Notes: generated from the letters alone by a model not told the origin. 64,000 nt of DNA from an uncultured Aminicenantes bacterium (GCA_965195285.1 CBDAFS010000041.1:1-64000), one strand, 5' to 3'; positions 35,873 through 53,286 are shown, counted from the first letter of the stretch. Numbers and translations: made by a program.

Positions 35873-35909
35873 TTGAGGTAAAGGTTAAGGTAGCGTAAAA
35901 TGCATACAC

Positions 35910-35933
35910 GTAGGGGCAAACGGCGGTTTGCCC
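35910..35933 (+). repeat. GTAG-type REP palindrome (singleton)
   Basis: GTAGGGGCAAACGGCGGTTTGCCC, identical to 21496-21519. Confidence 0.85.
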
Positions 35934-36464: not shown

Positions 36465-36601
36465 CCTTGGATTTGTTTATTAACCAAGTAACGTAACCAA
36501 ACGATCCGGGGAAAAACGGAAAAAACCGAATTTCCCCGGAGTCCTTTTAATGGAGTTAATTCCCTGAAACCTGAACTGGGTTTCTGGCCGGGGAAAAACC
36601 A

Positions 36602-37242: not shown

Positions 37243-37443
37243 ATTTTTACCTCCGTGTATTTAAAAAAATAAAAAAAATCCTTAACAATTGTCTTTCCCT
37301 GCTCCCCATGTTTCAATAAACAGGAAACAGTAAAATGTTTATTTTTACTTAATTCTTACTATAATAATAAAAGAAAAAACATTTTTTTCCAATAAAGAAA
37401 ATTATTTTTTTAAAATTTTTAATGGGAAAAGGGATTATTCTTT

Positions 37444-37773
37444 CTATTTCTTGTCTTTTGTTTTCGTGTTGCAGATTTTGCAGGGGGTATAACCTTGCTT
37501 GATGGCCTCGGCAAGATTCATTTCCTTGGCATCTTTTTTGATCATATGGCAACCTTTCTTATGGTATTTTTTTTCGCTGGCATTGACCAACACTTTGGTT
37601 TCTTCCTGGGCAATGGGTTTGCAGACTTTGCAGGGGGTGTAGCCTTTCTTAACGGCCTCACTCAGAGTAACCCGGGTTTTCCCGGTTTTTACCAGGCTGC
37701 AATTTTTCTTGTGATATTTTTTTCCGCCCTCTTTTATATATACATAGGTTTCCGATGATTTTTTTAAAGCTGA
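37444..37773 (-). pseudogene. 5'-truncated gene with two tandem Ada-type metal-binding domains (absent from the ORF track)
   Basis: Manual translation: ...YVYIKEGGKKYHKKNC...LSEAVKKGYTPCKVCKP...KKYHKKGC...LAEAIKQGYTPCKIC...TAG; no start codon ahead of the first domain, frame runs into the GGGGTC motif at 37774 and then a stop. Confidence 0.75.
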
Positions 37774-38857
37774 GGGGTCAAATCTTTATTATTGACAAAT
37801 AGAAATGAATTAAGACGCCTGGCAGGAGAACCATGGGTGACCCGGGAATAAAAAGTTACAGTCTCCTATTAATAACTTGAGCAATGGCTTTGATATATTC
37901 AGGTCCCATCCGGCAACACCCGCCAATAATATCAGCCCCAAGATCCAGCCATTCATCAACCATCAATTGGCAAAATGATAAATCAGAAGAACCTGACCAG
38001 GTTTTACTGGCTGCATGGTATATTTCTCCGGAATTGGGATAAACCACCACTTTTTTATCACCCGATTTCTCTTTAATTGCCCTGATCAATGGGGAAATTA
38101 AATTTGGTGCCGTACAATTGACACCAATAGCAAATACTCCTGGGTGAGAAGCAAAAAATGCAGCACAATCCTCTATGGGAGTTCCGTCATTCAGATGGCA
38201 TTCATCTTTACAGGAGAAAGACACCCAGGCCTGTTTTTTGGTATTCTTCAGGATTTCCGCCAATACCCTGGCTTCCTGAAAGCTTGGCATGGTCTCACAG
38301 GCAAAAAAATCTGCTCCCGACGTATCCAACAACTCAATTCTCGGTTGGTGAAATTCTGTAAGTTCCTCATCGGATAAACCGTAATGACCGCTATATTCCG
38401 AGCCATCAGACATAAAAGCGCCATATGGTCCAATACTGGCTGCCACCAGAGGCGAATAACTATTGGGTTGTGATGCCTCAAAATCTTTTATTGCCTCCTG
38501 GGCAAGGGTAACCGATTTTAGAATTAATGTTTCGGCTGTAGCCCGATCATGACCCAGAGCCAAAAAACCCGGAATGCTGGCCTGGTAGCTGGAAGTGATG
38601 ATGCATCGTGCACCCGTTTTTAGGTAAGCTAAATGGGCTTGCTTGATGGCCTCGGGATTAGAATCCAACAATCTGGCAGACCATAACCAATGATTCAGGT
38701 CACATCCCTGACTTTCCAGCTGGTTTGAGAGACCACCGTCTATCAATAATGGATATTTGATGTTCATTTGATTACAAAGAGTTTATTAAAATTTTTCAAA
38801 AATTTTTGACACAAATTTGACACAAATCAAAAATGTGGCAATGCAAGACCTGACCCC
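37774..38857. mobile_element. GGGG-bounded unit A: left motif, tRNA-Arg 3' fragment (37816-37849), mmuM, TGACACA direct repeats, right motif
   Basis: GGGGTCAAATCTTTATTATTGACA (37774, +) and GGGGTCAGGTCTTGCATTGCCACA (38857, -). Confidence 0.55.
37856..38767 (-). CDS. mmuM: Homocysteine S-methyltransferase
   Basis: LIDGGL, LWSA, AASIGPYGA, GSEY, GVNC, YPNSGE, IGGCC. Confidence 0.93.
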   Translation of the reverse strand: MNIKYPLLIDGGLSNQLESQGCDLNHWLWSARLLDSNPEAIKQAHLAYLKTGARCIITSSYQASIPGFLALGHDRATAETLILKSVTLAQEAIKDFEASQPNSYSPLVAASIGPYGAFMSDGSEYSGHYGLSDEELTEFHQPRIELLDTSGADFFACETMPSFQEARVLAEILKNTKKQAWVSFSCKDECHLNDGTPIEDCAAFFASHPGVFAIGVNCTAPNLISPLIRAIKEKSGDKKVVVYPNSGEIYHAASKTWSGSSDLSFCQLMVDEWLDLGADIIGGCCRMGPEYIKAIAQVINRRL

Positions 38858-38868
38858 ATTTATTTTTT

Positions 38869-39420
38869 TTAGTTGGGAACAGCTAATCCTCTTAACTTCC
38901 CTCCATTATCTCCCAGGATTATTGAAAAAAGAACACATATACCATTTAGGATCAAATACAACCATAAAGCCAAAGGAGCTTGGAACATGATCAATAAGGC
39001 CAGGATTGAGGAGAGGAGAAAAAAGAGTATGGCTACGGTGATCTTTAATTTTAAAATAGGGGTGTTTAATTTTTTAAATTGGGTTTTACCAACCAATAAT
39101 CCGGTTATTATTGCCCCTAATACCGATAAGGGTAAAAGAACTGAAAGAACCTGGCTGCACGATAAAAGATTGAATGGGCAAGGAAAAAACAAGATCAGGT
39201 GAAAGAACAGTAATCCCAAAATAATAACTGCAATTGCCTGGGGAAAATGAACCACCATAGAATGGAGATTTAAATCAAGAATTTTCCTCCTCTTTTCGGA
39301 AACTTTGTCATTATACCCTTCAAAGGCGTTTTTTGAAACTCCACAGGCAGGACAAAATTCCCCTAGTTTATGTTGATCAATAATAAATCCGCAGACTTTA
39401 CAAATAACTTTATTTTTCAT
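38869..39420 (-). CDS. Rubredoxin-like domain fused to DUF2231-like membrane domain
   Basis: CKVCG...CPACG; HSMVVHFPQA; four TM helices; GDNGGKL; AGGAG RBS. Confidence 0.75.
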   Translation of the reverse strand: MKNKVICKVCGFIIDQHKLGEFCPACGVSKNAFEGYNDKVSEKRRKILDLNLHSMVVHFPQAIAVIILGLLFFHLILFFPCPFNLLSCSQVLSVLLPLSVLGAIITGLLVGKTQFKKLNTPILKLKITVAILFFLLSSILALLIMFQAPLALWLYLILNGICVLFSIILGDNGGKLRGLAVPN

Positions 39421-39514
39421 CTCTCCTCCTATTTATTGTCTGAAATAGTAAATGATTCAAGATTCTTTTGCAAGTAAGTAAAAGTAATAAGGGGTGTAAA
39501 ATTTAGGAGTGTAA

Positions 39515-39673
39515 GGGGTGATATTGTTTGACAGTGTGACATTTATTTTTACAGCAGTTAGGAAAAGTAATTTAAAGGGTGAGGGAACCTGCACCTGGCA
39601 GGGATCGAACCTTTTTTTTATTTTTATTTAAAAAAAACGATAAGTGGATTTCAATACTTCAAAAGACCGTCCC
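39515..39673. repeat. GGG-bounded unit B containing tRNA-Arg 3' end (39591-39612)
   Basis: GGGGTGATATTGTTTGACAGTGTGACATTT (+), GCACCTGGCAGGGATCGAACCT (21/22 match to the tRNA), GGGACGGTCTTTTGAAGTATTGA (-). Confidence 0.7.
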
Positions 39674-40520
39674 TTTTTGTCCCTTTTTGTCTTTTTGTAA
39701 TATGACGCTCTAGACTGGATATGAATTTTTGTAATCCTGCGATATAAAGTTGTTCTGAAAGGATAACCCCTTCATTGTGACTCCCTCTAATTGAGAGAAA
39801 TTCTTTGGGGGAACGTGCAGAATCATAGAGTTTTTGACCGTTGCTATAGGAAATGATCTCATCATCCCGGCTATGAATAATCAGCACCGGGCAGTTGATT
39901 TTTTTTAAGTATTTTGATGTGTTATATTTAAAATGGGATAAAAGTTTAACTGGAAAAATCGGATATAGTTTTGCCCCCAACTCAGGGATTGAAGTAAAAG
40001 AAGATTCAACGATTAATCCTCTGGGATTATATTTTTGAGCTAGCCAGGCTGCTATTGATCCTCCCAGGGAGCGGCCAAAAACAATTATTTTATTGTTTGA
40101 AATCTTTAATTCATTTACCAGATAATTCCAGGCTGCCTCTGCATCCAGATATGTGCCCTTTTCAGTGGTTCGACCTTCACTCTGACCGTATCCTCGATAA
40201 TCGAATATGAAGGTGTTTAATTGAAGATGATGAAAAATTTTAATAGATTCGAGTCGATGGGAAATATTCCCGGCATTTCCATGACAGAATAAAATAGTTG
40301 CCTTTGGTTTTTTAGTGGGAATAAACCAGGCAGAAATTAACACATCATCAGAGGTTTTATAACATATTTCTTGATATTCCAGATTAATGCTTTTTGGGGT
40401 TTGCAAAATATCTCTTTTTGGAAAATAAACAAACCTGGATTGAAAGAAAAAAAGGTAGGCAACTAATACTATGTATATAAAAGCTGCTGAGATTACAATA
40501 GTAAAAAAAAATCGGGACAT
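39651..40520 (-). CDS. Alpha/beta hydrolase (ABHD13/17-like)
   Basis: CHGNAGNI, DYRGYG, GRSLGG nucleophile, HSRDDEI, GSHN. Confidence 0.92.
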   Translation of the reverse strand: MSRFFFTIVISAAFIYIVLVAYLFFFQSRFVYFPKRDILQTPKSINLEYQEICYKTSDDVLISAWFIPTKKPKATILFCHGNAGNISHRLESIKIFHHLQLNTFIFDYRGYGQSEGRTTEKGTYLDAEAAWNYLVNELKISNNKIIVFGRSLGGSIAAWLAQKYNPRGLIVESSFTSIPELGAKLYPIFPVKLLSHFKYNTSKYLKKINCPVLIIHSRDDEIISYSNGQKLYDSARSPKEFLSIRGSHNEGVILSEQLYIAGLQKFISSLERHITKRQKGTKRDGLLKY

Positions 40521-40639
40521 TGAATTTACCGTCAACTTAAAAAAATAATTTTACCAAATCAATAATAATAATATCTTTTGATATTATATCAGGAAAAATG
40601 AGTTGTTGCCAAAGAAACATAGAAAAATCGAGAAAAATC

Positions 40640-40906
40640 GGGGACGTTGCTTGACAGTGTGACATTTGTTTTTACAGCAGTGAGGAAAAGGTGTTTTAAA
40701 GGGGTAGGGGAAAACGCGCCTGGCAGGGAAACCATGGGTGGACCGGGATTAGGAAAACTATGTCCCAAAAAAAGAAAACCCTGAATTATCAATACTATAC
40801 AACGTTTTCAGGATTTCAAAGTTGAAAATTTGTGAAAAATTTTGTAAATATTTTGGCACAAATCTGGCACAATTATACAAAATGTAGCAATGCAAGTCTT
40901 GCCCTC
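40640..40906. repeat. GGGG-bounded unit C: tRNA-Arg 3' half (40715-40755) plus TGGCACA direct repeats
   Basis: GGGGACGTTGCTTGACAGTGTGACATTT (+); CGCGCCTGGCAGGGAAACCATGGGTGGACCGGGATTAGGAA; TTTTGGCACAAATCTGGCACAA; GAGGGCAAGACTTGCATTGCTACA (-). Confidence 0.75.
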
Positions 40907-41032
40907 ATCGATTTTTTCTCCTGGATTGAAGGTAGATTTTTTTTTGGATTTATCATGAGAATTTTGTAAATTTACAATAAAAATTCCAACTTTTTTAAGT
41001 TTTTTCGTAATAATAAATAGGGAAGAACCAAA

Positions 41033-42202
41033 ATGAAGTATCTATTTATGAAGAAGATAATGATGTTGATCATTTTTATTGTAATGACCTCTGTTTCCTG
41101 TGATAAAACCAATGATGAATGGGTCTATTCAGTGCCGGTAAATCACAACGATGGCTGGGAGACCGCTTCTGTGGAGGATGTCGGAATCAGTCTACAACCT
41201 CTCACTTCAATGATGAATTATTACAACACAATAGAACACAAGATCCACTCCATCCTGATTGTTAAAAACGGCAAACTTGTTTTTGAAGAGTATTTTCCGG
41301 GATATACTGTTGGCAGCAGCAGTAATGATTTTGAGGGGGATTACGTCACTTTTTCCTGGGATAGGGTTCATATAACGTGTTCGGTCACCAAAAGTTTTAC
41401 CTCTGCTCTGGTAGGGATCGCCATTGACAAAAAATTTATCAAAAATGAGAAGGTAACCATTTTTTCCTATTTCCCGGATTACAGCCACTTACAGGATAAG
41501 CAGAAAAACAAGATCACCATTGAACATCTGGTGACCATGACTGCAGGCCTGGAATGGGATGACAGTGAAGGCCCTGAATCAGACAGGAACCAAATATGGC
41601 AGGAGTCAGATCCCATTGGATTCATTCTTGACCGGCCGGTGGTGGATGAACCAGGCACAGTTTATTTATATTCCGGTGGAAATATCAACCTGGCCGGGGA
41701 GATCATTAAACGGGCCAGCGGGCTGGATGCTTCTGCCTTTTCCGGGGAACATCTGTTTAATCATCTGGGAGTTACCCAGTTCCAGTGGGGATATTATCAA
41801 AACAATGTTGTTCACTGCTCAGGTGACCTGTTTATCACCCCTCGCACTATGGCAAAATTCGGCACCCTTTTTCTCAATAAAGGGATCTGGAAGAACACAC
41901 GGATTATTTCAGAACAGTGGATAAACAAATCAGTATCCCCATATATTCAACTACCTCAGCCCAATAATTCTGTAACTCCTGCTGACTCCTATGGTTATGC
42001 CTGGTGGATCTATGATTACGAATTGGATGGCGGTTATAAGGTCCATTCCTATTCAGCCCGGGGTAGGGGCGGGCAGGATATCATCATGCTCCCGGTCCTG
42101 GATACAGTAGTTGTATTTACCCAGGGATATTACCTCACCCATTATCATCAGGCACAACATATTATGGATCGTTACATTCTGAAAGCAATTTTAAATATTT
42201 AG
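41033..42202 (+). CDS. Serine hydrolase, beta-lactamase/AmpC-like family (probable lipoprotein)
   Basis: SVTK (SxxK), ITIEHLVTMTAGL, PGTVYLYS, ARGRGGQ; lipobox-like SVSC. Confidence 0.9.
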   Translation: MKYLFMKKIMMLIIFIVMTSVSCDKTNDEWVYSVPVNHNDGWETASVEDVGISLQPLTSMMNYYNTIEHKIHSILIVKNGKLVFEEYFPGYTVGSSSNDFEGDYVTFSWDRVHITCSVTKSFTSALVGIAIDKKFIKNEKVTIFSYFPDYSHLQDKQKNKITIEHLVTMTAGLEWDDSEGPESDRNQIWQESDPIGFILDRPVVDEPGTVYLYSGGNINLAGEIIKRASGLDASAFSGEHLFNHLGVTQFQWGYYQNNVVHCSGDLFITPRTMAKFGTLFLNKGIWKNTRIISEQWINKSVSPYIQLPQPNNSVTPADSYGYAWWIYDYELDGGYKVHSYSARGRGGQDIIMLPVLDTVVVFTQGYYLTHYHQAQHIMDRYILKAILNI

Positions 42203-42321
42203 CTTAATGAAGATGCGATGAAAAAGGGGTCATATGGTGAGGGACGGTGCCTGACTTTATGACTTTATTGTCCATTCGATTAAGCATCATAAAATGGGGG
42301 CAGGTCACTTTGATAAAAATA

Positions 42322-42394
42322 CGCGCCTGGCAGGGATCGAACCTGCGGCACCGGGATTAGGAATCCCGCGCTCTATCCTCTGAGCTACAGGCGC
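42322..42394 (-). tRNA. tRNA-Arg(CCT)
   Basis: GCGCCTGTAGCTCAGAGGATAGAGCGCGGGATTCCTAATCCCGGTGCCGCAGGTTCGATCCCTGCCAGGCGCG folds as a full cloverleaf; TACAAT just upstream. Confidence 0.95.
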
Positions 42395-42412
42395 ATGGAG
42401 AGATTGTATCAA

Positions 42413-42571
42413 AGGTAGAGGTAAAGGTAAAGGTTGAGGTTAAGGTTGAGGGGAAAACGTAAATCGTGAGTCGTAAGTCGTGAATTGTAAGGCATTAGGG
42501 TAGGGGCGAATGGCAATTCGCCCTTTTTTATTGAATGGCTGTTATCCGGGCAAACCGTTGTTTGCCCCTAC
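42413..42571. repeat. (AGGTAA)n tract and REP doublet 42500-42571
   Basis: GTAGGGGCGAATGGCAATTCGCCC and GGGCAAACCGTTGTTTGCCCCTAC. Confidence 0.8.
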
Positions 42572-42603
42572 ATGATTATAATTGTTTTGAGATTGATCAG
42601 CAC

Positions 42604-43863
42604 TTAAAAATAAAACCTGAATGATGTGTATACCATATCCGGGTAGGCGCCGAATTCAGAGTGGAGCAGGGGTGAATTCTCTTCAAGTGGGTTCGGAACA
42701 TATTCGGGTTTTTTCCCCACTCCGATATAGGCCCCGGCAGCAATATAAATATTTTCGGCGATGTTGTATTCAACCTGAGGTGAAAATGAGAGGGACAAAT
42801 CACTGAGATTGGCCAGCAGGAATCCGGTGGCGGTGATCAGCCCCGTGATCTGTTTGGTGATTCCCAGACCCAGATAGTGTTTTCCTAATAAATAAACCGC
42901 TCCGTCTCTGAATGCCGGTGAATCAAGGATGTTTAGATAGTTTTCGGCCTGATTTTCTCCGGCCGAACTGTAGTGGTATTCCACAAATGTGTATACACCA
43001 CCCCTGAAATTGAAATCAAGACCGAAAGAAGCTCTGAAGTACGGATCTTCCTTTTCCGGTTCCGAGTTGAAGAAATCCGGTGACACATAGGCCATCTCCA
43101 GCCAGATACTGGCGCCTCCGACTGCCCGTGACAGATCGAAACCGATCAGCAGGTTTTCTCTGAAGGACATCAGCAGCAGACTCAGGTCAGTCTTCAGCAG
43201 ATAGGTCTTTCCCCTCAGGAAGAAGGCACTTTTATCGCCCCTGAAATCGTCACCGGCCACAAAGCCGATATCCAGTTCATCCATCATGCCCAGCGGGATT
43301 CTCACCCTCAGGGCATCCACTCCGCGGCGTTCTTCGGTGTCCAGTTCGTTGAAGCTGAAGGGGGCTATAACATCTGTCGGATTGATGATCCGGGCGCTTC
43401 CCCAGGCAATGGCCTGCCTCCCCAGAAAAATATCGCCGAATTTGAATTTAAGAGTAACATAAAAACGGTCCAGGTTTTGAAACAGCCCGAAACTTTCCGG
43501 AGTGATATCGGACCTGGGATAGATTTGAGAGGGAAAATCAGCAAACCGGTAGTCGAGCGGTTCGATTCCGAAGGAATAGATATCCTGATTGAAAAGACGT
43601 GAGTCCTGAATCCGGGGATAGATATCATAGGCCGTATGCAGCGAGAACCACTCGGCAGGTTTATACCTGATTTGAATCCGCAGCCGGTTATTGACCGCTC
43701 CCATATCCGGATCCTTCAGGCTTTCATCGCCCATCTGATAGCGGGGTTGAATAAGCAGGGTAGAAAAGTTTTTTACATAACCCGAAATTTCGAACGGATT
43801 TTCGGCTGAAGCAGGCAGGGCAATTAAAAGCAGGACAATCAGGATTTTCCAGGGACGTTGCAT
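42604..43863 (-). CDS. Putative outer-membrane beta-barrel protein of the ABC/LolA-like operon
   Basis: Signal peptide, LDR..., GRQAIAWG...NPTD motif, C-terminal FRFYF. Confidence 0.75.
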   Translation of the reverse strand: MQRPWKILIVLLLIALPASAENPFEISGYVKNFSTLLIQPRYQMGDESLKDPDMGAVNNRLRIQIRYKPAEWFSLHTAYDIYPRIQDSRLFNQDIYSFGIEPLDYRFADFPSQIYPRSDITPESFGLFQNLDRFYVTLKFKFGDIFLGRQAIAWGSARIINPTDVIAPFSFNELDTEERRGVDALRVRIPLGMMDELDIGFVAGDDFRGDKSAFFLRGKTYLLKTDLSLLLMSFRENLLIGFDLSRAVGGASIWLEMAYVSPDFFNSEPEKEDPYFRASFGLDFNFRGGVYTFVEYHYSSAGENQAENYLNILDSPAFRDGAVYLLGKHYLGLGITKQITGLITATGFLLANLSDLSLSFSPQVEYNIAENIYIAAGAYIGVGKKPEYVPNPLEENSPLLHSEFGAYPDMVYTSFRFYF

Positions 43864-43873
43864 GTTGATCCGT

Positions 43874-44575
43874 CTATTTTTTGCGAATGTCCTCAGATAT
43901 TTGACCGTCTTTCAGGGTGATCACCCGGGTGGCTTTTTCCATGACCATGGGGTCATGAGTGGAAAACAGAAAGGTCATTCCGGTGTTTTGATTCAGGGTG
44001 TGCATCATATCGATCAGGTTGGATCCGGTTTCCGAATCCAGATTGGCAGTCGGTTCATCAGCCAGAATAAGTGCTGGACGTGAGACCATGGCCCGGGCGA
44101 TGGCTACCCGCTGTTGTTGTCCGCCTGATAATTTGGGCGGGACTCGGCTCTCCATTTCAAGTAATCCTACCTGGTCCAGCATATTCCTGACCCGTTCATG
44201 CCGTTCCTCTTTTTTTATCCCCTGCAGCATCATGATGTATTCAACATTTTCACGTACCGTGAGGACAGGGATAAGGTTGTAGGCCTGAAAAATAAATCCG
44301 ATTTGATCCCGGCGAAAATCCGACAGCTGACGTCCGTTCATTTCAGATAGTGCATTTCCTTTCAACCATATTTTACCCGAGGTCGGGGTGTCCAATCCGG
44401 ATATAATATTGAGCAGAGTGGTTTTTCCAGATCCGGAGGGTCCTACAATGGCCGTGAACTCACCGGGTCCTATGGTCAGATTGACACCCCTGACCGCATG
44501 AACTTCCATGCCGTTATCCTGATAGGTTTTTTTCAGATCTTCTGTGATGATGATGAAATCATTTTGGCGATTCAT
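43874..44575 (-). CDS. LolD/MacB-type ABC ATP-binding protein
   Basis: [36 protein letters not shown]. Confidence 0.93.
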
Positions 44576-44589
44576 GGTTGTTCCTCCTG

Positions 44590-45822
44590 TTATAGGCTAC
44601 GACGGATGGCATCGGTTATTGACATGCGGGATGCCACTATTGCCGGATATATTCCCACCAGCAGGGTAAAAGCAAACAGCCCTGCGGGATAGATAATGAA
44701 TTGATAGATTTTCATGACCGGATAGAGTAAATCATTGAAGGTGGTACCGGCAAATTCAATTCCCCGGTAATCGATTCCGGTCTGGGCCATGATTCCGGTA
44801 ATAATCAGGCTTATAATAATGCCGATGACCGCACTGATTATTCCCAGAGAACCGGATTCGGCCAGCATCAGTTTAAACACTCCCCAGGGACGTGTTCCCA
44901 CTGCTCTGAGAATACCGAATTCAAAGAGACGCTCATAAAGGGACATAAACAGGGTATTGATAATCCCGAATATGACCACGATAATCAGCAGGAATGCCAG
45001 TATAACTTTGAATGCCCCGGTCATCTCAAACATGGTTTTGAGTTGGGGCAATAACTCCTCCCAGCTGATTGCTTTATTACCGTGATCGGAGAAGGTTTTC
45101 CAGAAAGGGAGATCTTCTTGGGAGGCATATTTTAATTGGCTGAATTTTATAGCGATTTCGTGGACTTGGTCCCCGATTCCCAGCATCTGCTGGGCAACTG
45201 GCAGGCGGATAAAGGCCATACCCTGGTCCATCTCTTTGATGGAAAAATGGTATATCCCGGAGACCCGGAACATTTCCTGGGAGAGATCTCCGCTGTGAGC
45301 GGTTGATACGGTTGCCACCAGTCGATCACCCAGTCCAATTTCAAGTATTTCAGCCAGTTTGCTGCCGATGACAATATCACGGGGATTGGCTTCGGAGAAA
45401 AAATTTCCCTCTTTGATAGCGTCATCGATCTTGGAAATGGCTCTTTCTCTCTGGGGATCGATTCCCACCAGCAGAACGGAATTCACATTGGCCGGAGAGG
45501 TGATCATGGCCATGGCCAGGGTGCGAGGACTGTAGCCTTCCACCAGGGGATCGGTTTTCAGGCCTTTGATCACCTCTTCTGATTGGTTGACGGTTAGAGT
45601 CGTATCGCGACTGGTTTGAAAACCCTCCCGGTGAATCTGGGCCTCTCCGATAAATGAATCGGTTGCCGAACGGATGGCCACATCTTCCATGCCGATAATC
45701 AGGCCGTCATAGAAGATCAGGCAGGCCAGGCCGATACCGATGGCAATTCCGGCGATGATGGTACGCCGCTTGTTGCGCAGAACGTTTCTCCAGGCAAGTT
45801 TGATATAAAACCACATAGTCAT
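44590..45822 (-). CDS. LolC/E-type (FtsX) ABC permease
   Basis: LAWRNVLRNKRRT, NTLFMSLYERLFEFGILRAVG. Confidence 0.9.
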   Translation of the reverse strand: MTMWFYIKLAWRNVLRNKRRTIIAGIAIGIGLACLIFYDGLIIGMEDVAIRSATDSFIGEAQIHREGFQTSRDTTLTVNQSEEVIKGLKTDPLVEGYSPRTLAMAMITSPANVNSVLLVGIDPQRERAISKIDDAIKEGNFFSEANPRDIVIGSKLAEILEIGLGDRLVATVSTAHSGDLSQEMFRVSGIYHFSIKEMDQGMAFIRLPVAQQMLGIGDQVHEIAIKFSQLKYASQEDLPFWKTFSDHGNKAISWEELLPQLKTMFEMTGAFKVILAFLLIIVVIFGIINTLFMSLYERLFEFGILRAVGTRPWGVFKLMLAESGSLGIISAVIGIIISLIITGIMAQTGIDYRGIEFAGTTFNDLLYPVMKIYQFIIYPAGLFAFTLLVGIYPAIVASRMSITDAIRRSL

Positions 45823-45829
45823 TTCTCCT

Positions 45830-47050
45830 TTAATGTATCCGCATCGATTTTGCAGCATCGGTCCGGGCTGCTTTTAAAGCCGGAAGGAATCCCACCACAA
45901 GTGACGATATCAGGATGGTAATAGCCGGGATATAGAAGCTGCGGGCATTGATTTCCGCCTTGAAGGTGTCGAAGGTCATGCCGCCATAGGAAAACTCCAT
46001 GCCCATATTGATGCCGTGGGTTGTCAGAATGCTGTTGATGATCCAGGCCATACCGAAACCGATAATGATCGAAAAGAAAGCCATGATGTTGACCTCGGTC
46101 ATGACCAGTTTAACGATTTGACTGGGCCGGGTGCCGATGGCTTTCAGTACCCCATACTCACGGGTTCGTTCCAGAACCGACATTAAAACCGTGTTCAATA
46201 CGCCGACTGCCACGATCAATACGATGATCACCAGCGAGATCCACATACCTTCCATATCCGCCTTCATGGCCAGGTAGAAGGACCGGGCAAATACCTGCCA
46301 GGGATTGACCGACAGTTCAGGTCTGTTTATTAATGTTGAAATGGTATCGGTCATCGGTTTTACCTTATTCAGATGACCGATGTTAATGGCAATTTCATGG
46401 ATCCGGTTTCCCAGTACCAGCAATTCCTGGGCATCTTGTATGTGTAGATAGAATGATATGCGATCTGACATCAGGTCGCCGGAATCGACCAGACCTACTA
46501 TGGTGTAGCGATCGTTGGCAATTGAACCATCGGCTCCCTGGGAGACAATGACAATGTCGTCCCGGACATCGGCATTGAGTAATTTGGCCAGCTCTTTTCC
46601 CAGCAGAACCTGATGGTCGGCACGGTTGGAGAAGTATTGTCCCTGGGAGACCTTTTTATGAAACTGGGTGGTCATTTGTTCGCGGGTTGGGTCGATACCG
46701 ATGATGCGAACGCCGGCACTTTTTTCCTTGACCGAGACCAGACCGGCCGAATACACCCGGGGTGCAAACGAATCGATTTCAGTCAGTGTCTGAAGCTGAT
46801 TTTGAATGCCTGAATAATCATTGATGGTTTTGTAGAGGGATGGACGGTCCAGGTAATGTTGTTCATGGATCTGGATGTGACCGAAGTTGTGGCGGGTAAA
46901 GTTATCGATGATATGGTTGTAGCTCCCATCGGCCCAGCCGATAAACACAGCAGCCATCACAAATCCGCCGAACATGCTCAAAATGGTGAGAATGGTCCGG
47001 CGCTTCTGCCGAAAAATGTTGCGGAAAGCGATTTTAAGCAGCATGATCAA
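45830..47050 (-). CDS. LolC/E-type (FtsX) ABC permease
   Basis: IAFRNIFRQKRRT, NTVLMSVLERTREYGVLKAIG. Confidence 0.9.
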   Translation of the reverse strand: MIMLLKIAFRNIFRQKRRTILTILSMFGGFVMAAVFIGWADGSYNHIIDNFTRHNFGHIQIHEQHYLDRPSLYKTINDYSGIQNQLQTLTEIDSFAPRVYSAGLVSVKEKSAGVRIIGIDPTREQMTTQFHKKVSQGQYFSNRADHQVLLGKELAKLLNADVRDDIVIVSQGADGSIANDRYTIVGLVDSGDLMSDRISFYLHIQDAQELLVLGNRIHEIAINIGHLNKVKPMTDTISTLINRPELSVNPWQVFARSFYLAMKADMEGMWISLVIIVLIVAVGVLNTVLMSVLERTREYGVLKAIGTRPSQIVKLVMTEVNIMAFFSIIIGFGMAWIINSILTTHGINMGMEFSYGGMTFDTFKAEINARSFYIPAITILISSLVVGFLPALKAARTDAAKSMRIH

Positions 47051-47811
47051 ATCCTTGAGCGCAGGTTTCTCAGACTAAAGGTGTCGTCCGGAATCTTGAT
47101 GTCAAAGCGGGCTTCAATGTAGCGGACAAGCGTCCTGTTTCCCTCTTTATGGGTCGATATGAGTTCCATGACCGATGGTATGGTTCGGTCATCAAATGTT
47201 TTTATGCCCCGATAAACCATTTCTCGCATTAACTTTCCTCTTTCATCATAATATTTCTGCCAGACTGGAAGATAGTCATTTTTCCTGACAGCGATGATAA
47301 CATATCCCCAAACGATTGGACGGTCCTTTTTGGGAATGCATTTGATATATATTTCCCCCGGCTTCGGATCGTCTATAGCTGTCATTTCAAAATGGTAATC
47401 CTTGAGAAAGGTATATTCTTTAACCAGGTCGTCGTTGGTGAAATCCGAACCCATCCAGGAGCTCATCATCATCGAGGGTGGAATTTTCATGACTTTATTG
47501 GTCTTGGGAAGAAAGTTCCACATTTCGTTTCCGATACGTAGTGTGGTCATGCCCTGTTCCTTTTTGGGTTCAAGAATGCGGATAAATGTATTTTCCGCTC
47601 CCTTACTCCAGATATTGATCTTTAGTGTCCGTTTCCAGTGGGGAGTAACGATTTCCATTTCAACCAGGGCCATGCTGGAATCACTGCGATAAAGTTCATC
47701 TACTCTTCTCAATATTTCGATCGCATCCTGGGTTTGACCTGCACCCAGGGACGCCGAAGATATGAAACTGAAGAGGATGAAACACAATATAACTGCGATC
47801 GATGCTTTCAT
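47047..47811 (-). CDS. Outer-membrane lipoprotein-sorting protein (LolA-like)
   Basis: Signal peptide; MWNFLP, SWMGSDFTNDDL, FSLRNLR. Confidence 0.85.
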   Translation of the reverse strand: MKASIAVILCFILFSFISSASLGAGQTQDAIEILRRVDELYRSDSSMALVEMEIVTPHWKRTLKINIWSKGAENTFIRILEPKKEQGMTTLRIGNEMWNFLPKTNKVMKIPPSMMMSSWMGSDFTNDDLVKEYTFLKDYHFEMTAIDDPKPGEIYIKCIPKKDRPIVWGYVIIAVRKNDYLPVWQKYYDERGKLMREMVYRGIKTFDDRTIPSVMELISTHKEGNRTLVRYIEARFDIKIPDDTFSLRNLRSRI

Positions 47812-47878
47812 GATTTTTCTCCTTGTAGATAAAATAAATTGAAAGGCAATCCTGATTTATATTTTTTTGACATTTGTT

Positions 47879-48496
47879 TCATCTTATGGAAATTCCCTCC
47901 AGAACCATACGAACCATCTCTTTCATGGTTTTGTCAAAATCAATGGTTTTATCCAAGAGCCACTGGACCATGATGCCATCATTCATGCCCAGAATTATTA
48001 TAGCCATGTTCTTGGCATCCAGGTCTTTTCTGAAACTGCCTTCTCTGATTCCATCTTTTATCAGGTCCTCACACAATTTTCTGTAGGCCTGGTAAAAGAT
48101 GTTCATTTCCTTGAACAGGATGTTTTTTGCCTGAATGTTTTTGATGCTCTCCGCCCAGAAATCAAATATCAATTCCATGAGTTGCCTGTTTTCGGGTAAT
48201 TGCATGGTTCGGGTAAAGGCATCGAAAACCTGCTTGAGTTTTTCAATGGAGGGGAGAGAGGATAGCAGGATCTCTTCAAAATCAAACTCGAGTTCTTTTA
48301 TGAAAAAGTAAAAGGAATTATTAATGATTTCATCTTTGGTTTCGAAATAATCATAGATAGTACCCTTCCCGGTTCCGGCAGCTTCGGCAATATCACTGAT
48401 AGTTGTGCGGGAAAATCCCTTTTGGGCAAATAATTTGATGGCTGCCCTGATAATCAATTCCTTTTTTTCTTTTTTATCAACAATTTTTGCGCTCAT
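47879..48496 (-). CDS. TetR/AcrR family transcriptional regulator
   Basis: LFAQKGFSRTTISDIAEAAGTGKGTIYDYFETKDE HTH. Confidence 0.93.
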   Translation of the reverse strand: MSAKIVDKKEKKELIIRAAIKLFAQKGFSRTTISDIAEAAGTGKGTIYDYFETKDEIINNSFYFFIKELEFDFEEILLSSLPSIEKLKQVFDAFTRTMQLPENRQLMELIFDFWAESIKNIQAKNILFKEMNIFYQAYRKLCEDLIKDGIREGSFRKDLDAKNMAIIILGMNDGIMVQWLLDKTIDFDKTMKEMVRMVLEGISIR

Positions 48497-48506
48497 TGTA
48501 TTTATT

Positions 48507-48526
48507 ATGACCGACTGGTCGGTCAT
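48507..48526. promoter_or_regulatory. Putative TetR operator
   Basis: Palindrome ATGACCGAC-TG-GTCGGTCAT 10 bp upstream of the TetR start. Confidence 0.75.
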
Positions 48527-48613
48527 TTATACCATTGTGATATTAAATGTGAAATATTTCAAGTGAAAATTGAAAAAAAATATATTTATTAGAAAAAGAA
48601 AATAAAAAAAGGA

Positions 48614-48756
48614 GTGGACGTTGCTTGACAGTGTGACATTTTGTTTTTTATTTGATTTAGGGAAAGAATTTAAAAGAGTAGGGGAAACGCGCCTGGCAGG
48701 AGAACCATGGGTGGCACCGGGATTCTTAATGAATGCAAAATATAAGACCTGATCCC
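48614..48756. repeat. GGG-bounded unit D containing tRNA-Arg 3' fragment (48688-48724)
   Basis: GTGGACGTTGCTTGACAGTGTGACATTT (+); CGCGCCTGGCAGGAGAACCATGGGTGGCACCGGGATT; GGGATCAGGTCTTATATTTTGCA (-). Confidence 0.75.
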
Positions 48757-48804
48757 AATATTACAATATTAACTAAATGTCGAGATCAGATAAAAATATT
48801 TATT

Positions 48805-50370
48805 TTAAACTCTTTTTGGAAGTTTTTGTCCTGATGGAGTCATAGCCAGACCCCCAAGAGCCGTACAACGTAGCTCTGATGGCAACATTTTCCCGACTGA
48901 ATATACGGCATCAATGGTTTCATCCAGAGGAATGGGATTTATATATCCGCCTAAAATAAGGTCAGCACAAACAAATGCCGAAGAGGCAGCTACTGCATTT
49001 CGGGTATGGCAGGGTATCTCACAGATCCCCTGGACAAGATCACAGACGGAACCCATTGTATTCTGAAAAGCGATGGCTGCAGAATCACAGGCTTGTTTGG
49101 CATTTCCGCCTGCACTTTCGATAACAGCAGCTGCAGCCATGGCGCCGGCTGTTCCGATTTCCACCTGACATCCGGCAATTTCAGCAGCAAAAGTGGCTCG
49201 CCTGGCAACAATTAAACCGATAGCAGAGGCGGCAAACAAAGCCCGGGCTATTTGTTTGGGTTTCATTTTTTTTTCATCAGCCAGAGAGGTGATCACTCCG
49301 GGGATAGTTCCTGCCGAGCCTCCGGTTGGGGCCGCACAAACAATTCCCATACTGTTATTAATATGCATCACGGCCATAGCTCTGGCTGCAGCCCGAGTAT
49401 GAAGACCGCCTATGGCAAGGCCCCCCATATTCTCCTTTCTGATTATTTCAGAAGCAGTCGGTTGCAGGAGCTGCATCTGGACATTATTTATATCAAGTCC
49501 CCGGTATACGGATTCCTGCATGATTCTATACCGGTAAATCATCTCGTCAAGAGCACTTTTTTTTGATATTCCGAGAAGATTCGCTTCATAAACCAGAGCA
49601 ATTTCTCCCAATGATTGAGCTTGTTTTTCGGCCGTGCGGATCATTTCGCGGGCACTTACAAACAATTCTTTGCCTTTTTTGACTTTGAAAACTGGAGAAG
49701 TTGTCCAAATTTTTTTGATCCCTTCTAATGAATCTATTTTAATTTTATCTTTTTGGGATATTCGATTTTCAAATCGAGCTACAATAACTTTCTCATTTTT
49801 CTGATCAGAAATATCAGGAGAATCTATTAGACCAGCCATTTTTTTTATTCGTGATATCAATTTCCTGGAATCTTTGTGGCAAATAATTACATATTCTACT
49901 GCTTTGCCAGAGAGGAGGACGTTATAACCATTGAGACGGGTAATTTTGATCATTCCTCCTCCGATTGATTGGGCTTCGACAGTGAGTTTTTGATTGCTTT
50001 TTCCGGTTATTTCTATCAGTACAAAGTTGGGATGACTGGCCTGTTTCAATTCGGATATCTTGAAATTAATTTTCCAGCCTTTTTTTTCTGCTATTTTAAG
50101 GGCCTGAAAAAAAAGATCATCCGTTAAGGATAAACCAAGAAGCCCGCTTATCAGAGCAAGATCAACACCCTGTTCCCGGAAAACCCGGGCATAAGAACTG
50201 TCGGGATCAAAAGTAAATTCAATTGCTGTTGGATCCTCTTCAATCATAGAATAAACCAGTCGGCCGATATGATAGGATCCGGCTGTATGAGAACTTGAAG
50301 GTCCCCGCATTACCGGACCCATTACATCATTGAAGATACTGATAAATACCATGCTTTTGCCCGATAACAA
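48805..50370 (-). CDS. Fe-S L-serine dehydratase, fused beta-ACT-alpha type
   Basis: GPVMRGPSSSHTAG, SIGGG, AAPTGGSAG, AGCQVE, GSVCD...EIPC, ELRCTALGGL. Confidence 0.9.
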   Translation of the reverse strand: MLSGKSMVFISIFNDVMGPVMRGPSSSHTAGSYHIGRLVYSMIEEDPTAIEFTFDPDSSYARVFREQGVDLALISGLLGLSLTDDLFFQALKIAEKKGWKINFKISELKQASHPNFVLIEITGKSNQKLTVEAQSIGGGMIKITRLNGYNVLLSGKAVEYVIICHKDSRKLISRIKKMAGLIDSPDISDQKNEKVIVARFENRISQKDKIKIDSLEGIKKIWTTSPVFKVKKGKELFVSAREMIRTAEKQAQSLGEIALVYEANLLGISKKSALDEMIYRYRIMQESVYRGLDINNVQMQLLQPTASEIIRKENMGGLAIGGLHTRAAARAMAVMHINNSMGIVCAAPTGGSAGTIPGVITSLADEKKMKPKQIARALFAASAIGLIVARRATFAAEIAGCQVEIGTAGAMAAAAVIESAGGNAKQACDSAAIAFQNTMGSVCDLVQGICEIPCHTRNAVAASSAFVCADLILGGYINPIPLDETIDAVYSVGKMLPSELRCTALGGLAMTPSGQKLPKRV

Positions 50371-50636
50371 GTTATCACAAAAGGATTAAAAAGGAAATTA
50401 GTAAAAAAATCGGGATCAGGTCTCTTCATGACAAAAAAATGAAAAAATGAAAAAATGAAAAAATGGGGACGAAAAAATGGGGACGGTGCTTGACTATTTG
50501 ACTTTTTCAAATCTTCTTCCTGCTTCTGAAAAAGAACCTGTAAAAAAGTGGGGTGGATGCTTTAAAACCTGTTAATATCGAATATTATGATTAAATAATC
50601 AACGTTGAACCTTGAACATTGAATGTGGAACTTAAA

Positions 50637-50708
50637 CGCGCCTGGCAGGAAAACCATGGGTGGACCGGGATTAGGGATCCCGCGCTCTATCCTCTGAGCT
50701 ACAGGCGC
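50637..50708 (-). pseudogene. Degenerate full-length copy of tRNA-Arg(CCT)
   Basis: Identical acceptor and D arms; anticodon loop TCCCTAA (U33 to C); T-arm replaced by TCCACCCATGGTTTT; TGCTATAAT upstream. Confidence 0.85.
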
Positions 50709-50841
50709 AAGGGGATATTATAGCAAAATTTCCCTTCCAAGTCACGGCAGGCATTACGAAATACTACCATTCTGGTAGCATATTGTGTTATAATAGCGGG
50801 AAGTTGTTTTGAAAATACCATTTTCGCCAGAGGAGGTTAGA

Positions 50842-51393
50842 ATGCTCAAAAGGATTTTTATTTTAATATTGATTGTGTTATTCATTTTGGTCATGTTCTC
50901 TTGCAAGACCGGGAGTGATGTTGACAACCAGGATGATCAGGATACCGATCCGGTGATCGGGGTTTATCTCAATAACATTACCGTAAATTTCATTGAGAAC
51001 GATCAAAACGGAGGCAGTTTTAACCTGGAATCTTTGAAGGGCAAAGTCATTATGCTGGTATTCAGTGCCATGTGGTGCAGCCCCTGCCGTACGGAGGCTT
51101 CAAAATTAATGGAATTGTACAATACCTATAAGGAAAGGGGACTGGAGGTTGTGCAGTGTATTTACCAGGATGAAGATTCCAATCCTGCTGACCTGAGTGA
51201 TATCAAACGCTGGGTTCAGGAATTCAATATCGGTTTTATTGTGGTCAATGATCCGGACTATTCAACCGTTAACACCTATAATTTCAGTTCCATTCCTTTC
51301 AATGTCATCGTTGACCGGGACTTTATCATCAGATACCGGGTTTCCGGATTTAATGAACAGGCGGTTAAAAACGTTATCGAAGACTATCTCTGA
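50842..51393 (+). CDS. TlpA-family thioredoxin-like lipoprotein
   Basis: Lipobox FSC, WCSPC, SIPF; GAGGAGG RBS. Confidence 0.9.
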   Translation: MLKRIFILILIVLFILVMFSCKTGSDVDNQDDQDTDPVIGVYLNNITVNFIENDQNGGSFNLESLKGKVIMLVFSAMWCSPCRTEASKLMELYNTYKERGLEVVQCIYQDEDSNPADLSDIKRWVQEFNIGFIVVNDPDYSTVNTYNFSSIPFNVIVDRDFIIRYRVSGFNEQAVKNVIEDYL

Positions 51394-51395
51394 AA

Positions 51396-51884
51396 ATGAA
51401 AAGAATCGGTTTTTTCCTTCTGGTATTCTGGCTGTTTGGTTCTCAAATCCAGGCCGTGACTGTAACCGATTTCAGCCTGAAAAAAATGGATGGTGATTTT
51501 TTTAAACTAAGCGAGCACCTGGGCAGTAAGATCATTGTCATTGATTTCTGGGCCTTCTGGTGCAAACCCTGCAAGAAGTTGTTAAAACGATTGAACACCA
51601 TCCAGAAACAATACCGGGGACAGGTTGAGGTACTGGCCATTTCAATAGATGAGGCCTCGGCTTTTTCCACGGTTGAGAGTTACATCAAGGCCAGGAGATT
51701 TGAATTTACGGTGTTGTTTGATGCGGAAAACAAAGTGGCTCGCTTGTACAATCCCACCCTGAAAATCCCCTTTACCATGATTGTAGACTATCAGGGCAAT
51801 ATTGTCTATGTCCATACCGGGTACATTCCCGGAGTGGAAAGTGAGATTGAAGATAAAATAAAGAATATTCTCAGTTCAAAGTAA
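51396..51884 (+). CDS. TlpA-family thioredoxin-like protein
   Basis: Signal peptide, IDFWAFWCKPC, AISID, IPF. Confidence 0.9.
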   Translation: MKRIGFFLLVFWLFGSQIQAVTVTDFSLKKMDGDFFKLSEHLGSKIIVIDFWAFWCKPCKKLLKRLNTIQKQYRGQVEVLAISIDEASAFSTVESYIKARRFEFTVLFDAENKVARLYNPTLKIPFTMIVDYQGNIVYVHTGYIPGVESEIEDKIKNILSSK

Positions 51885-51885
51885 C

Positions 51886-53286
51886 TTGAAGAAAACCATA
51901 TCATTTTACCTTGTGGTCCTGGTATTGCTGGGGCTGCCTCTCGGGCTGGCTGCATTTTCGGTTAGGAGCCTGCAGTTTCTGGTGACCAATGAGTTGATCT
52001 ATCAATATAATGAGGTTGCCGAGGAGAAACACTAATATCACGAGTTAATTTCCCTTTCCGCCAGTTTAAAGAACTGGTCGCTGGGTCTCACCCTGAGGGG
52101 ATTTAATTTCTACAAACAAACCCCCAATAACACCCTGGACAACCTGAAAGTGGATATCTACCGGTTTTATATCCGTTATCAGAAGTCCCACTGGAAAGTC
52201 AATGCCGGTGATTTCTATGCTTTACTGGGTCGGGGAATGGTTTTATCGGTTTTAAAAAACGAGGATGTACTGAGAGAGCGAACCATTACCGGCGGTGATA
52301 TTGGCTACCACCGGGGGAGACTCGACTTCAGGATACTGGCCGGAGTGGTCAAGGATGAGACCGAGGATCAAAAGTGGGCCCTGGTTGGTGGCGAAACCAG
52401 CCTGGAATGGCTTGAAGACAACTATCTGGGCTTGCATTTCAGTTATATCAATGATATGGATTCCCGGCTCCAGCTGGGTCAACGGTTGACATATTCCCTC
52501 AGCGCCAGCGGTAATAAGCTTTTAAAACATTTTAGTTATTACGCCGAATTTGCCAGGCTGGACTTTCTGGAAAACGGTTTATTGGCCGAGAACGGGTATG
52601 GCCTTTATTCGAGCCTGACCTTTAATTATGCCCCTGTCACCTGTTTGGTTGAATATAAAAAATACCATCATTTCAACAATGAAATGAACAATCCCCCGGT
52701 TGCTGACCGGGAGGATGAAGTCTCATCCATTTCAGATACCGATGGGGTCAGGTTTCAGGTGCAGTATGCCCTGTTCAACCCGGATCTGATATTTTTTGTC
52801 AACCACGGGCGCTACCGGGAGTATGAAGATAAGGGAGATCATACCTATGGGGGACTGATTCTTGAGGATCTCTGGGATCGTCTGGATGTTTCAGTGTCCT
52901 ATGGGATCAAGGATATACTTTATCCCATAAAGAAATTTAAATTTGACCTGGTTTATCAGATTTCCAACCGCTGGAGCCTTGAATTTTCAGCCCGGAATAA
53001 ACATTACCGGGACGGGGAATTTGTCTTCAAGGAGCAGGATCATTCCCTTCAGGTATCCCTGGCACCTGTTTTATCGTTTTATTTTCTGCATCAATACTCC
53101 CATAACCGGATCATGGATCTTAATCATTTTTATAGCGGGGGGATCAAGCTGATTCTGAAGGGAATCACGGTTATCGAACTCTCTCTGGGCACGGTCCGGG
53201 GGGGGCAGATGTGCAGTGGAGGCCAGTGTTTTGTGGTTCCGCCCTTCAAGGGAGTCAAGTTTTCAATTTTCCATATATTCAAATAA
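51886..53286 (+). pseudogene. Outer-membrane beta-barrel (DUF6029-like) interrupted by an in-frame TAA at 52033-52035
   Basis: TTG 51886 gives signal peptide MKKTISFYLVVLVLLGLPLGLAA in frame with ORF 52150-53286; GDFYALLGRG; C-terminal GGQMCSGGQCFVVPPFKG. Confidence 0.7.

Follow-up and report, generated by a model that had tools for sequence, protein, structure and literature searches.

TIRtron-type terminal inverted repeats in a tRNA-Arg(CCT) array of an uncultured Aminicenantes bacterium

Short motifs beginning with GGG(G)WC recur between positions 37,774 and 50,505 of a 64,000-nt stretch of DNA from an uncultured Aminicenantes bacterium (GCA_965195285.1 CBDAFS010000041.1:1-64000), and several of them bracket fragments of tRNA-Arg(CCT) genes. 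The whole stretch is called the window here; it belongs to an 88.6-kb contig of a 3.28-Mb genome assembly (G000). By comparison of sequences we identify these motifs as the terminal inverted repeats (TIRs) of TIRtrons, units of about 1 kb that encode a RAYT-like HUH/Y1 enzyme known as TIRYT. The motif family, its cognate genes and its spread through the genome are directly observed. Taken jointly, the data are probably accounted for by TIRtron TIRs lying in an array of tRNA-Arg(CCT) attachment (att)-type junctions that serial integration would have left behind. This class of element, named in 2013, is already known and little studied, and its setting in a tRNA-linked island is unusual. G000 is also a rich natural system for it, having many TIR subfamilies with their own tails, derivatives resembling miniature inverted-repeat transposable elements (MITEs), and footprints at the repeat ends that differ between co-occurring strains.

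The repeat family and its cognate genes

The conserved outer part of each motif is called the head. To define strict head patterns, only sequences flanking Y1 genes at other places in the genome were used: pattern A is G[GT]GACG[GT][GT][GCT][CT][CT]T and pattern B is GG[GA]TCA[AG][AGT]TCT. A first, looser pattern of fixed spacing was dropped, having given 10 matches against 15 expected and missed real copies. Across the genome, pattern A matches 97 times against 22–29 expected and pattern B 94 times against 29–31 (three Markov-1 simulations), which makes about 190 heads against 51–60, a three- to fourfold excess in which about 28% of the strict matches are expected by chance. The first-pass annotation had noticed the motif only in 37.7–50.5 kb; this holds for the window and for its contig, but not for the genome.

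Many of the heads form inverted pairs 960–1040 bp apart around open reading frames (ORFs) of 300–328 amino acids (aa) that carry YHxxxRG...NHYHL motifs. Twenty Y1 loci are found in G000 by tblastn, 14 of them long (the one on contig C21 being split into two ORFs) and 6 of them fragments. Matching inverted ends of about 26 nt stand on both sides of 13 of the 14 long loci (C9, C12, C14, C15, C21, C26, C27, C31, C46, C47, C49, C50 and C61), and the long locus on C30 has one end only; a genome scan for pairing and transposase adjacency, as proposed at first pass, yields these inverted pairs about 1 kb apart. Pfam Y1_Tnp (PF01797, IS200-like) is matched by an A-type protein (C26; 6.6e-9) and by a B-type protein (C47; 2.1e-14), and the tail of the B-type protein matches Bac_DnaA_C (8.8e-8). 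HYH and (A/V)Y(V/I)xxNP motifs are seen in the translations, and the tyrosine of the latter is presumably the catalytic one. The nearest TIRYT loci in public genomes, at 91% and 89% identity, are from metagenome-assembled genomes (MAGs) of 'Candidatus Aminicenantes', and TIRs of 26–28 nt can be 100% identical across species whose neighbouring genes share 70–92%.

Each TIR subfamily has a conserved head (GGGGACGG.. or GGGGTCA..), which stands outermost, and a tail of its own, often made of two short direct repeats such as TTGACAnnnnTGACA, CTTACTTTATTAC or TTGAAACTTGGAAA. Besides the long TIRYT loci, G000 holds about ten such subfamilies, MITE-like derivatives and well above 100 solo TIRs. B-type doublets of 150–200 bp are taken as MITE-like deletion derivatives because they retain TIRtron end sequence, and the same repeat stands at several contig ends, as fits a multi-copy element. 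The window motifs are recognised as TIRtron TIRs because they belong to the same repeat families as the gene-flanking TIRs: BLAST ties them to the TIRs of TIRtrons on C12, C49, C9 and C26 and in the related genome G002.

According to the accessible text of Di Nocera, De Gregorio and Rocco (2013; PMC3733652), RAYT-like genes between terminal inverted repeats are named TIRtrons and their enzymes TIRYT, the TIR motif is GGGGWSAS, and TIR families occur as singles, dimers and clusters; the best-defined group comes from Acidobacteria (PMC3733652; PMC6006769). In the part available of Quentin et al. (2018; PMC6006769), TIRYT forms subclass 2.1 of TnpA_REP, with Bac_DnaA_C, HTH_23 or HTH_28 tails. 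The system described here agrees with this in its Y1 genes placed at fixed distances between TIRs, in the Bac_DnaA_C-like helix-turn-helix (HTH), and in the dispersal of its TIRs, which are found singly, as dimers and in clusters. As to GGGGWSAS, the B-family head GGGGTCAG fits it exactly, and there is one mismatch each in GGGGTCAA and in the A-family forms GGGGACGG or GGGTGACGG. The link to Y1/RAYT-type transposases that the first-pass annotation offered was thus correct, since the motifs match a published class. Unlike the published TIRtrons, those of G000 have undergone an unusual expansion (14 long loci, about ten subfamilies, about 190 strict heads, A heads of the GGGGACGG form). Their TIRs also delimit tRNA att-type modules, and their heads carry junction-spanning duplications; neither is described in the available text of PMC3733652 and PMC6006769, whose supplements possibly list similar TIRs.

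Two other families of Y1 systems can be compared. REPs (repetitive extragenic palindromes) are palindromes of 20–40 nt with a GTAG or CGTC tag, REPINs fold as hairpins, and RAYTs are usually single-copy; such REP/REPIN-RAYT systems (REPtrons) were reportedly described by Nunvar in 2010, Bertels and Rainey in 2011 and Ton-Hoang in 2012. The likeness lies in a Y1 gene flanked by inverted short repeats that are also intergenic throughout the genome, with one repeat family per gene. Unlike REPs and REPINs, the window motifs lack a hairpin or self-complementarity in six of the seven TIRs tested, the bracketing pairs do not pair with each other, and there are 20 Y1 loci here. The minimum free energies of the TIR units are 0 to −2.4 kcal/mol, and for every unit at least 18 of 200 shuffles fold as well or better. 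The classical form of REP or REPIN, an imperfect palindrome or a folding doublet, is therefore not that of the window TIRs or of the modules U3 and U5 described below. Members of IS200/IS605 (IS608, ISDra2) have subterminal hairpins, no terminal inverted repeats and no end duplications. What they share with the present system is that their transposase, an HUH Y1 enzyme, falls in the same Pfam family, PF01797 (abstract of PMC6006769).

The tRNA-Arg(CCT) array and its relatives

All eleven motif copies reported at first pass are present in the window. Eight match the strict patterns (37775+, 38856−, 39673−, 40641+, 42241+, 48755−, 50413+ and 50480+), and the other three (39515+, 40906− and 48614+) are degenerate, each a recognisable paralogue of a strict copy. 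The 88.6-kb contig has no strict match beyond these eight, which all lie inside 12.7 kb; eight uniform points would fall so close with a chance of about 1e-5 by our own arithmetic, the window copies not being mutually independent. Four plus/minus pairs each enclose one tRNA fragment, as had been noticed before, and all four fragments prove to be 3' parts of tRNA-Arg(CCT).

The first unit (U1) opens with a solo TIR of the B family (GGGGTCAAATCTTTATTATTGACA type; 37774–37799, plus strand, strict head), whose sequence agrees at 100% over 26–28 nt with both TIRs flanking the TIRYT gene of G002 (locus L014) and with a doublet at C62:135.3 kb. At 13 nt from it lies fragment 1 (37811–37852, minus strand; repeat family D1, pattern scan), with a scrambled T-arm of the 'CCATGGGTG' variant. 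Upstream of the homocysteine S-methyltransferase gene stands the distal part of an arm-like element with TTGACACAAATTTGACACAAAT direct repeats (38768–38831), which is 76% identical over 89 nt to 40829–40917 (U1R against U3R) and has relatives beside tRNA-Arg(TCG) fragments, at C15 and at C31. The unit is closed by a solo TIR of the B' subtype (GGGGTCAGGTCTTGCATTGCCACA; 38832–38857, minus strand, strict head), which is also present on C26, C55, C3 and C31 and twice in the G002 array.

U2 begins with a degenerate A-family TIR (39515–39541, plus strand), a paralogue of the one at 40640 (84% over 83 nt between U2 and U3), near a partial head copy at 39492. Fragment 2 (39585–39612, minus strand) has the native T-arm, is cut in the T loop and shares 19 nt at 100% with the tRNA; the stretch to its right has 81% identity to one adjoining a tRNA-Lys fragment at C15:107.2 kb. 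A solo A-family TIR of the C9 type (GGGACGGTCTTTTGAAGTATTGAAAT; strict head) follows at 39648–39692 on the minus strand, including a 10-nt junction-spanning tandem duplication outside its head that was found by a duplication scan. U3 starts at 40621–40664 (plus strand) with a solo A-family TIR of the C12 type, which has a strict head and a strain-variable junction-spanning tandem duplication (GAAAAATCG twice). Fragment 3 (40712–40753, minus strand) has a variant T arm and ends at the anticodon loop (GGATTAGG), an end point that recurs in contigs C261 and C126 of the related genome G001. Sequence comparison places an arm-like element (P' arm) with TTGGCACAAATCTGGCACAA at 40754–40881, 83% identical to G002 L014 3421–3524, 72–78% identical to G001 contigs and related to C31:15.4 kb, and it is followed by a degenerate B' TIR (40882–40906, minus strand), a paralogue of 38832–38857. 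At C31:15400–15510 (L015 3400–3510) the copy of the arm-like element is accompanied by a degenerate B'-type TIR, just after a GATase gene.

The functional tRNA-Arg(CCT) occupies 42321–42395 on the minus strand (ARAGORN; Rfam tRNA 67.6 bits), and 54 nt from its 3' end is a solo A-family TIR of the C49 type (42241–42266, plus strand, strict head). Farther on, U5 comprises an A-family TIR of the C12 type with a mutated head, GTGGACG (48614–48638, plus strand; a paralogue of 40640, with 82% over 112 nt between U3 and U5), fragment 4 with a variant T arm (48685–48726, minus strand; repeat family, pattern scan) and a solo B' TIR (GGGATCAGGTCTTATATTTTGCA; 48733–48756, minus strand, strict head). Among U2, U3 and U5 the mutual identity is 82–84% over 83–112 nt. 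The last TIRs are a solo B-family copy (50412–50433, plus strand, strict head) and, at 50434–50505 (plus strand; strict head, duplication scan), AAAAAATG repeats with a partial head copy GGGGACG and then an A-family TIR; they form the outer edge of a P-arm-like stretch that reaches 50633. A pseudo-tRNA-Arg(CCT) with a native 5' half and a variant 3' half is found at 50634–50710 (minus strand; Rfam 33.2 bits, no ARAGORN call). In 35.5–51.5 kb Rfam gives nothing besides the tRNA and the pseudo-tRNA.

Thus tRNA-Arg(CCT) is present as four fragments and as two full-length copies, all on the minus strand, and the direct repeats of the tRNA 3' part lie 3' of the tRNA-Arg gene. The units carry one gene each: a homocysteine S-methyltransferase, a rubredoxin-like membrane protein, an alpha/beta hydrolase and a beta-lactamase-family protein. 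The cargo of the G002 array is wholly different, consisting of an ankyrin protein and a 159-aa protein. No integrase is found in 34–54 kb of the window; six PF00589 matches occur in G000, one of them in a tRNA-Arg(TCG) island. The arm-like element that follows the fragments at 40754–40881 and 38768–38831 recurs behind four tRNA-Arg(TCG) fragments (C43 and C32), in an island that keeps its tyrosine integrase. Fragments of tRNA 3' parts are widespread in G000 (Ala, Val, Arg-TCG, Thr, Glu, His and Lys).

Comparison with three related genomes of the same genus indicates where the array is anchored, G000 and its relatives being fragmented MAGs whose contigs break at the TIR repeats themselves. Locus L003 of G003 has a Ser/Thr kinase gene and, after it, a functional tRNA-Arg(CCT); the 2865 nt that start at the 3' end of this tRNA are 93.7% identical to window 50634–53495. 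The ancestral site is therefore the one now held by the pseudo-tRNA at 50634–50710, and the breakpoint falls at the tRNA rather than at a motif; the functional tRNA of G003 occupies the place of the window pseudo-tRNA. G001 C71 has the kinase, the flank, the tRNA and an efflux-type operon (75.9% to window 42605–48525), without TIR or fragment. On G001 C261 the kinase and the same flank lead into a tRNA 3' half that reaches the anticodon loop; an arm-like element of 130 nt containing TTGGCACAAATTTGACACAA comes next, and TIRs follow it. We read the G003 locus and C71 as empty sites and C261 as an occupied junction. The first-pass expectation that breakpoints fall at the first G of the motif is thus borne out in part: many edges lie within 10 nt of it and strain indels lie just outside heads, but the clearest breakpoint, in the relative of 94% identity, is at the tRNA 3' end.

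Integrase-type recombination is the better fit to the fragments, all in direct orientation and on the 3' side of a tRNA-Arg gene, and the array resembles a series of small elements accreted in tandem, which kept their att junctions and would have lost their integrase, as in CIMEs (cis-mobilizable elements). The tandem ssrA islands of Dehalococcoides are said to be a comparable case of accretion at RNA genes. Tandem accretion of integrative elements and CIMEs at tRNA genes is treated in a review (PMC5704250, as far as its text was available). The likeness consists in direct repeats of the tRNA 3' part, segments with att sites and without integration genes, attP-like junctions, and relatives that show empty as well as occupied sites, the breakpoint lying at or within the tRNA. 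Unlike CIMEs, the segments here measure only 0.8–1.6 kb with one gene each, their arm edges are marked by transposase TIRs, and one tRNA copy became a pseudogene because the element-borne tRNA half is non-functional. The first-pass proposal that the motifs are themselves the recombination or cleavage ends of the cassette system did not hold, since they form a genome-wide repeat family; they also pair A with B' and show no hairpin pairing. TIR repeats can thus masquerade as cassette boundaries in tRNA-linked islands, which matters for the annotation of islands in uncultured lineages.

Some further observations concern the tRNA copies. The 8.3-kb stretch 42321–50710 (efflux-type operon, TetR, serine dehydratase and U5) lies between the functional tRNA and the pseudo-copy, and the latter has a 3' half of the element-type variant, which looks as though crossing-over in the anticodon region had carried the working 3' half to the far end; the working tRNA is at the 50.6-kb site in G003 and adjoins the operon in G001. 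Small insertions interrupt the T or anticodon loop of tRNA fragments at C55 (about 74338–74450), C43 (about 62262–62357), C32 (beside 25829 and 29202) and L011 (2268–2335). One tRNA-Val fragment and three tRNA-Arg(TCG) fragments share an insert of 95–110 nt ending ...GAATCATGGGA; in the G001 C126 core the T loop is interrupted by a different insert, 66 nt long and containing two hairpins. Directly 3' of tRNA-Arg(CCT) are four heptamer-spaced TTGAAC repeats (window 50590–50625; L002 7955–7995; L012 575–615); the run is found in the G001 chromosomal flank and in the P-arm-like part of the modules, and may be a protein-binding array.

TIR heads as boundaries and alternative readings

The layout of a module is as follows: TIR-A, a spacer or P arm, a tRNA 3' half, a P' arm and TIR-B', with heads outermost as in TIRtrons and with heterologous ends, A being paired with the B' subfamily. 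The homology among U2, U3 and U5 starts at the A-type head, crosses the spacer and extends into the tRNA core, while it fades outside the head; these three appear to be copies of one ancestral module, with the TIRs copied along. In seven of eight pairs of copies, 65–81 of 90 positions are identical inside the head against 9–39 of 60 outside it; in the eighth (38857 against 48756) only 21 of 90 agree even inside. The P-arm at 50479–50633 is 77% identical over 189 nt to G001 C126 from the head onward, with other genes beyond, and the arm-like element stops at a B-type head in U1, in U3 and in two G001 contigs. A duplicated tRNA-His flank likewise begins at a TIR head. In G003 the methyltransferase gene (92% identical) directly adjoins a TIR head in front of which are three copies of AAAAGATAG, and no tRNA fragment is present there; in G002 a complete TIRtron is located where flank and core were expected. 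Homology edges are often at, or within about 10 nt of, the first G.

Tandem duplications of 7–19 nt that span the junction, comprising flank and first head bases, are present at 26 of 190 heads, compared with 25 of 3000 GGG sites taken as controls. Three window TIRs carry this footprint: 39673 (at 39674–39692), 40641 (at 40621–40640) and 50480 (at 50434–50478). Because homology stops at the heads and short, strain-variable duplications are enriched there, we take the heads as real points of rearrangement, and the duplications may be a footprint of TIRYT cleavage. The main value of the system lies in these strain-variable footprints, which give a handle on where TIRYT cuts.

The strain data are Logan contigs from other runs (X1, X2, X14 and X15), not raw reads, and as several joints have short sides, the joints are taken as hints only. 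The copy number of the duplication differs between strains in X14 and X15. Among the 12 of 25 indel rows that were listed, 8 fall within 36525–36576 and come from a single run; the other 4 represent three places, 40631, 42232 and 50449, which are 9–30 nt outside the A-type heads 40640, 42241 and 50479. They comprise indels at 40631 in X14 and X15, a 4-nt insertion at 42232 in X15 and a 22-nt deletion at the 50434–50505 TIR in X14. In X15 the methyltransferase and rubredoxin-like genes stand in module contexts unlike those of the window, with edges at 37852 (the end of a tRNA fragment), 38791 and 38829 (arm) and 39491 (partial head); both tRNA core or arm and TIR heads thus appear to act as breakpoints. 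The X15 joint 39491->40633, which skips 1141 nt, was rejected as a proven deletion, one side being 29 nt and ending in a repeat while the hydrolase has its own X15 contig; it is better read as a different allele at the U2 head. The joints 37797->42418 (X14), 42268->50480 (X1) and 50507->42244 (X2) were set aside for sides of 25–26 nt or TIR-to-TIR similarity, and 39681->48811 (X2) has a depth of only 2.3. The zero depth of X15 over 42.9–48.3 kb is a stretch without cover, which proves nothing alone.

These observations can be joined into a tentative mechanism. A cognate TIRYT would bind the TIR tail and nick at or just outside the head, and heads would thereby become points of insertion, small duplication and adjacent rearrangement; with cutting near the head, small duplications and adjacent rearrangements would accumulate there. 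Solo TIRs would arise in trans, and the window copies, in a variable array with tRNA-Arg(CCT) as its anchor, would be non-autonomous solo TIRs of this kind. A separate, integrase-type process would have left the tRNA 3' fragments and arm-like sequences as att-type junctions. TIRs stand at the outer edges of the junction modules, three of which (U2, U3 and U5) would have been copied with their TIRs, and the TIRs at 37774, 39673, 42241, 50412 and 50479 would be independent arrivals.

Several points weigh against this account. Binding and nicking by TIRYT have to be supposed because no TIRYT biochemistry is reported: an enzyme assay was proposed in the 2013 paper, and none is reported in the available text of either paper (PMC3733652; PMC6006769). 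The tail of the A-type protein gives no Pfam HTH match, the A-type heads (GGGGACGG) deviate at position 7 of GGGGWSAS, and no integrase was identified for tRNA-Arg(CCT). Heads are not enriched near tRNA genes proper (6 of 191 within 500 nt against 2.1% of random loci). Finally, the position of TIRs at conserved P and P' arm edges in several independent comparisons is not what incidental colonisation predicts; it would be better explained if the boundaries are actively made by the heads or if the modules are themselves mobile.

The movement of modules was in part foreseen at first pass, where an element with a captured tRNA att site was suggested. Each module would then be a composite non-autonomous transposon carrying such a site and moved in trans by TIRYT between resident genes, a reading we consider rather unlikely. 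The TIRtron-like topology, the end of homology between module copies and between species at the heads in seven of eight pairs, a P-arm module that adjoins different genes in G000 and G001, and the G003 methyltransferase gene abutting a head all suit it. However, the ends come from different TIR subfamilies and the modules do not fold end on end in the manner of REPINs (U5 and U3; z +1.36 and +0.28), module interiors occur nowhere in G000 beyond the tRNA-Arg arrays, and all copies are co-oriented, 3' of a tRNA-Arg or tRNA-Arg-like gene. The pair 38857/48756 has little homology even inside the head, and the genes between modules are not resident, because they are entirely different in G000 and G002. 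The suggestion is thus favoured by where homology stops, and the heterologous ends and the absence of copies in G000 outside the arrays speak against it.

A further step along this line, which we regard as clearly unlikely, would make the TIR-bounded module (TIR-A, P arm, tRNA-Arg core, P' arm, TIR-B') a portable attachment site. TIRYT would move or copy the module beside any gene, and a tyrosine integrase acting in trans would recombine the cores with each other and with tRNA-Arg(CCT), so that single genes would become integrative cassettes piling up at the tRNA, with the heads as points of cargo exchange. If true, this would amount to an integron-like cassette economy built from two unrelated recombinases, and a mobile module would offer a new route by which single genes are turned into site-specific cassettes.

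It is very improbable that the pairs around tRNA fragments came about by chance, simply because an intergenic repeat is densely scattered in this region. About 5.8% of random non-ORF positions do have a strict head within 160 nt on one side, the pairs are heterologous, and an inverted partner is lacking at some junctions (Val42, G001 C126). Yet 5 of 18 tRNA fragments have a head within 160 nt on their 3' side, all five facing the fragment, three modules share their arrangement by descent, and the eight strict heads of the contig are confined to 12.7 kb. Near tRNA fragments heads are enriched (24 of 191 within 500 nt against 3.3% of random loci), and the window copies contribute to this number. 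A preference of TIRs for tRNA genes as such was rejected, 4 of 47 tRNAs having a head within 160 nt 3' against 5.8% of random non-ORF positions; Y1 loci are not enriched near tRNAs either (2 of 20 within 2 kb against 5–7% of random loci). The TIRs are clustered, the window being one of about nine clusters in the genome. At C31:170–176 kb (170065–176146; L035) seven minus-strand TIRs lie between single genes over 6 kb without a tRNA fragment, and the genes of this array are on separate short contigs in G001–G003. Since the clusters include this array, TIRs are a general feature of flexible regions in G000.

Integron arrays combine IntI with attI and with attC sites of R''-L''/L'-R' symmetry. 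The array described here is like them in its single-gene units, in a recurring structured site between units and in cargo that is wholly different among related genomes; unlike them, it has no IntI nearby and no attC-type imperfect palindrome, its gene orientation is mixed, and its site includes a tRNA fragment. That the motifs are arm-type or accessory binding sites of the tyrosine integrase system (integron- or attC-like) that merely resemble transposase ends is hardly credible: the tails are short direct repeats as in arm-type sites, the motifs stand at the outer limits of both arms of att-like modules and the cassettes carry single genes, but these motifs also stand on either side of 13 Y1 genes and make up MITE-like doublets distant from any att site, the C31 array is co-oriented without a tRNA fragment, arm-like elements occur at tRNA-Arg(TCG) fragments without a strict TIR head, and the mixed gene orientation and the lack of a nearby IntI-like gene speak against it as well.

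Other repeats near the array

Three further repeats were noticed in the window. A dispersed repeat of about 140 nt at 35870–36140 is 86–90% identical to copies on C16, C44, C30, C55 and C20. A reading of TTGRCACAAAnnTGRCACA repeats as sigma-54-like or promoter sequences was made by eye only and dropped. Beside the 5' side of the functional tRNA, at 42400–42530, are hairpin-bearing runs of the GGTAAAGGT type, which are found again at window 8.6 kb and on C16 and C30. Left of the first TIR, in 37430–37760, are two 41-nt direct repeats (37469–37509 and 37619–37659) that are 85% identical and lie in a short Cys-rich frame on the minus strand, a frame outside the list of ORFs of at least 80 aa.

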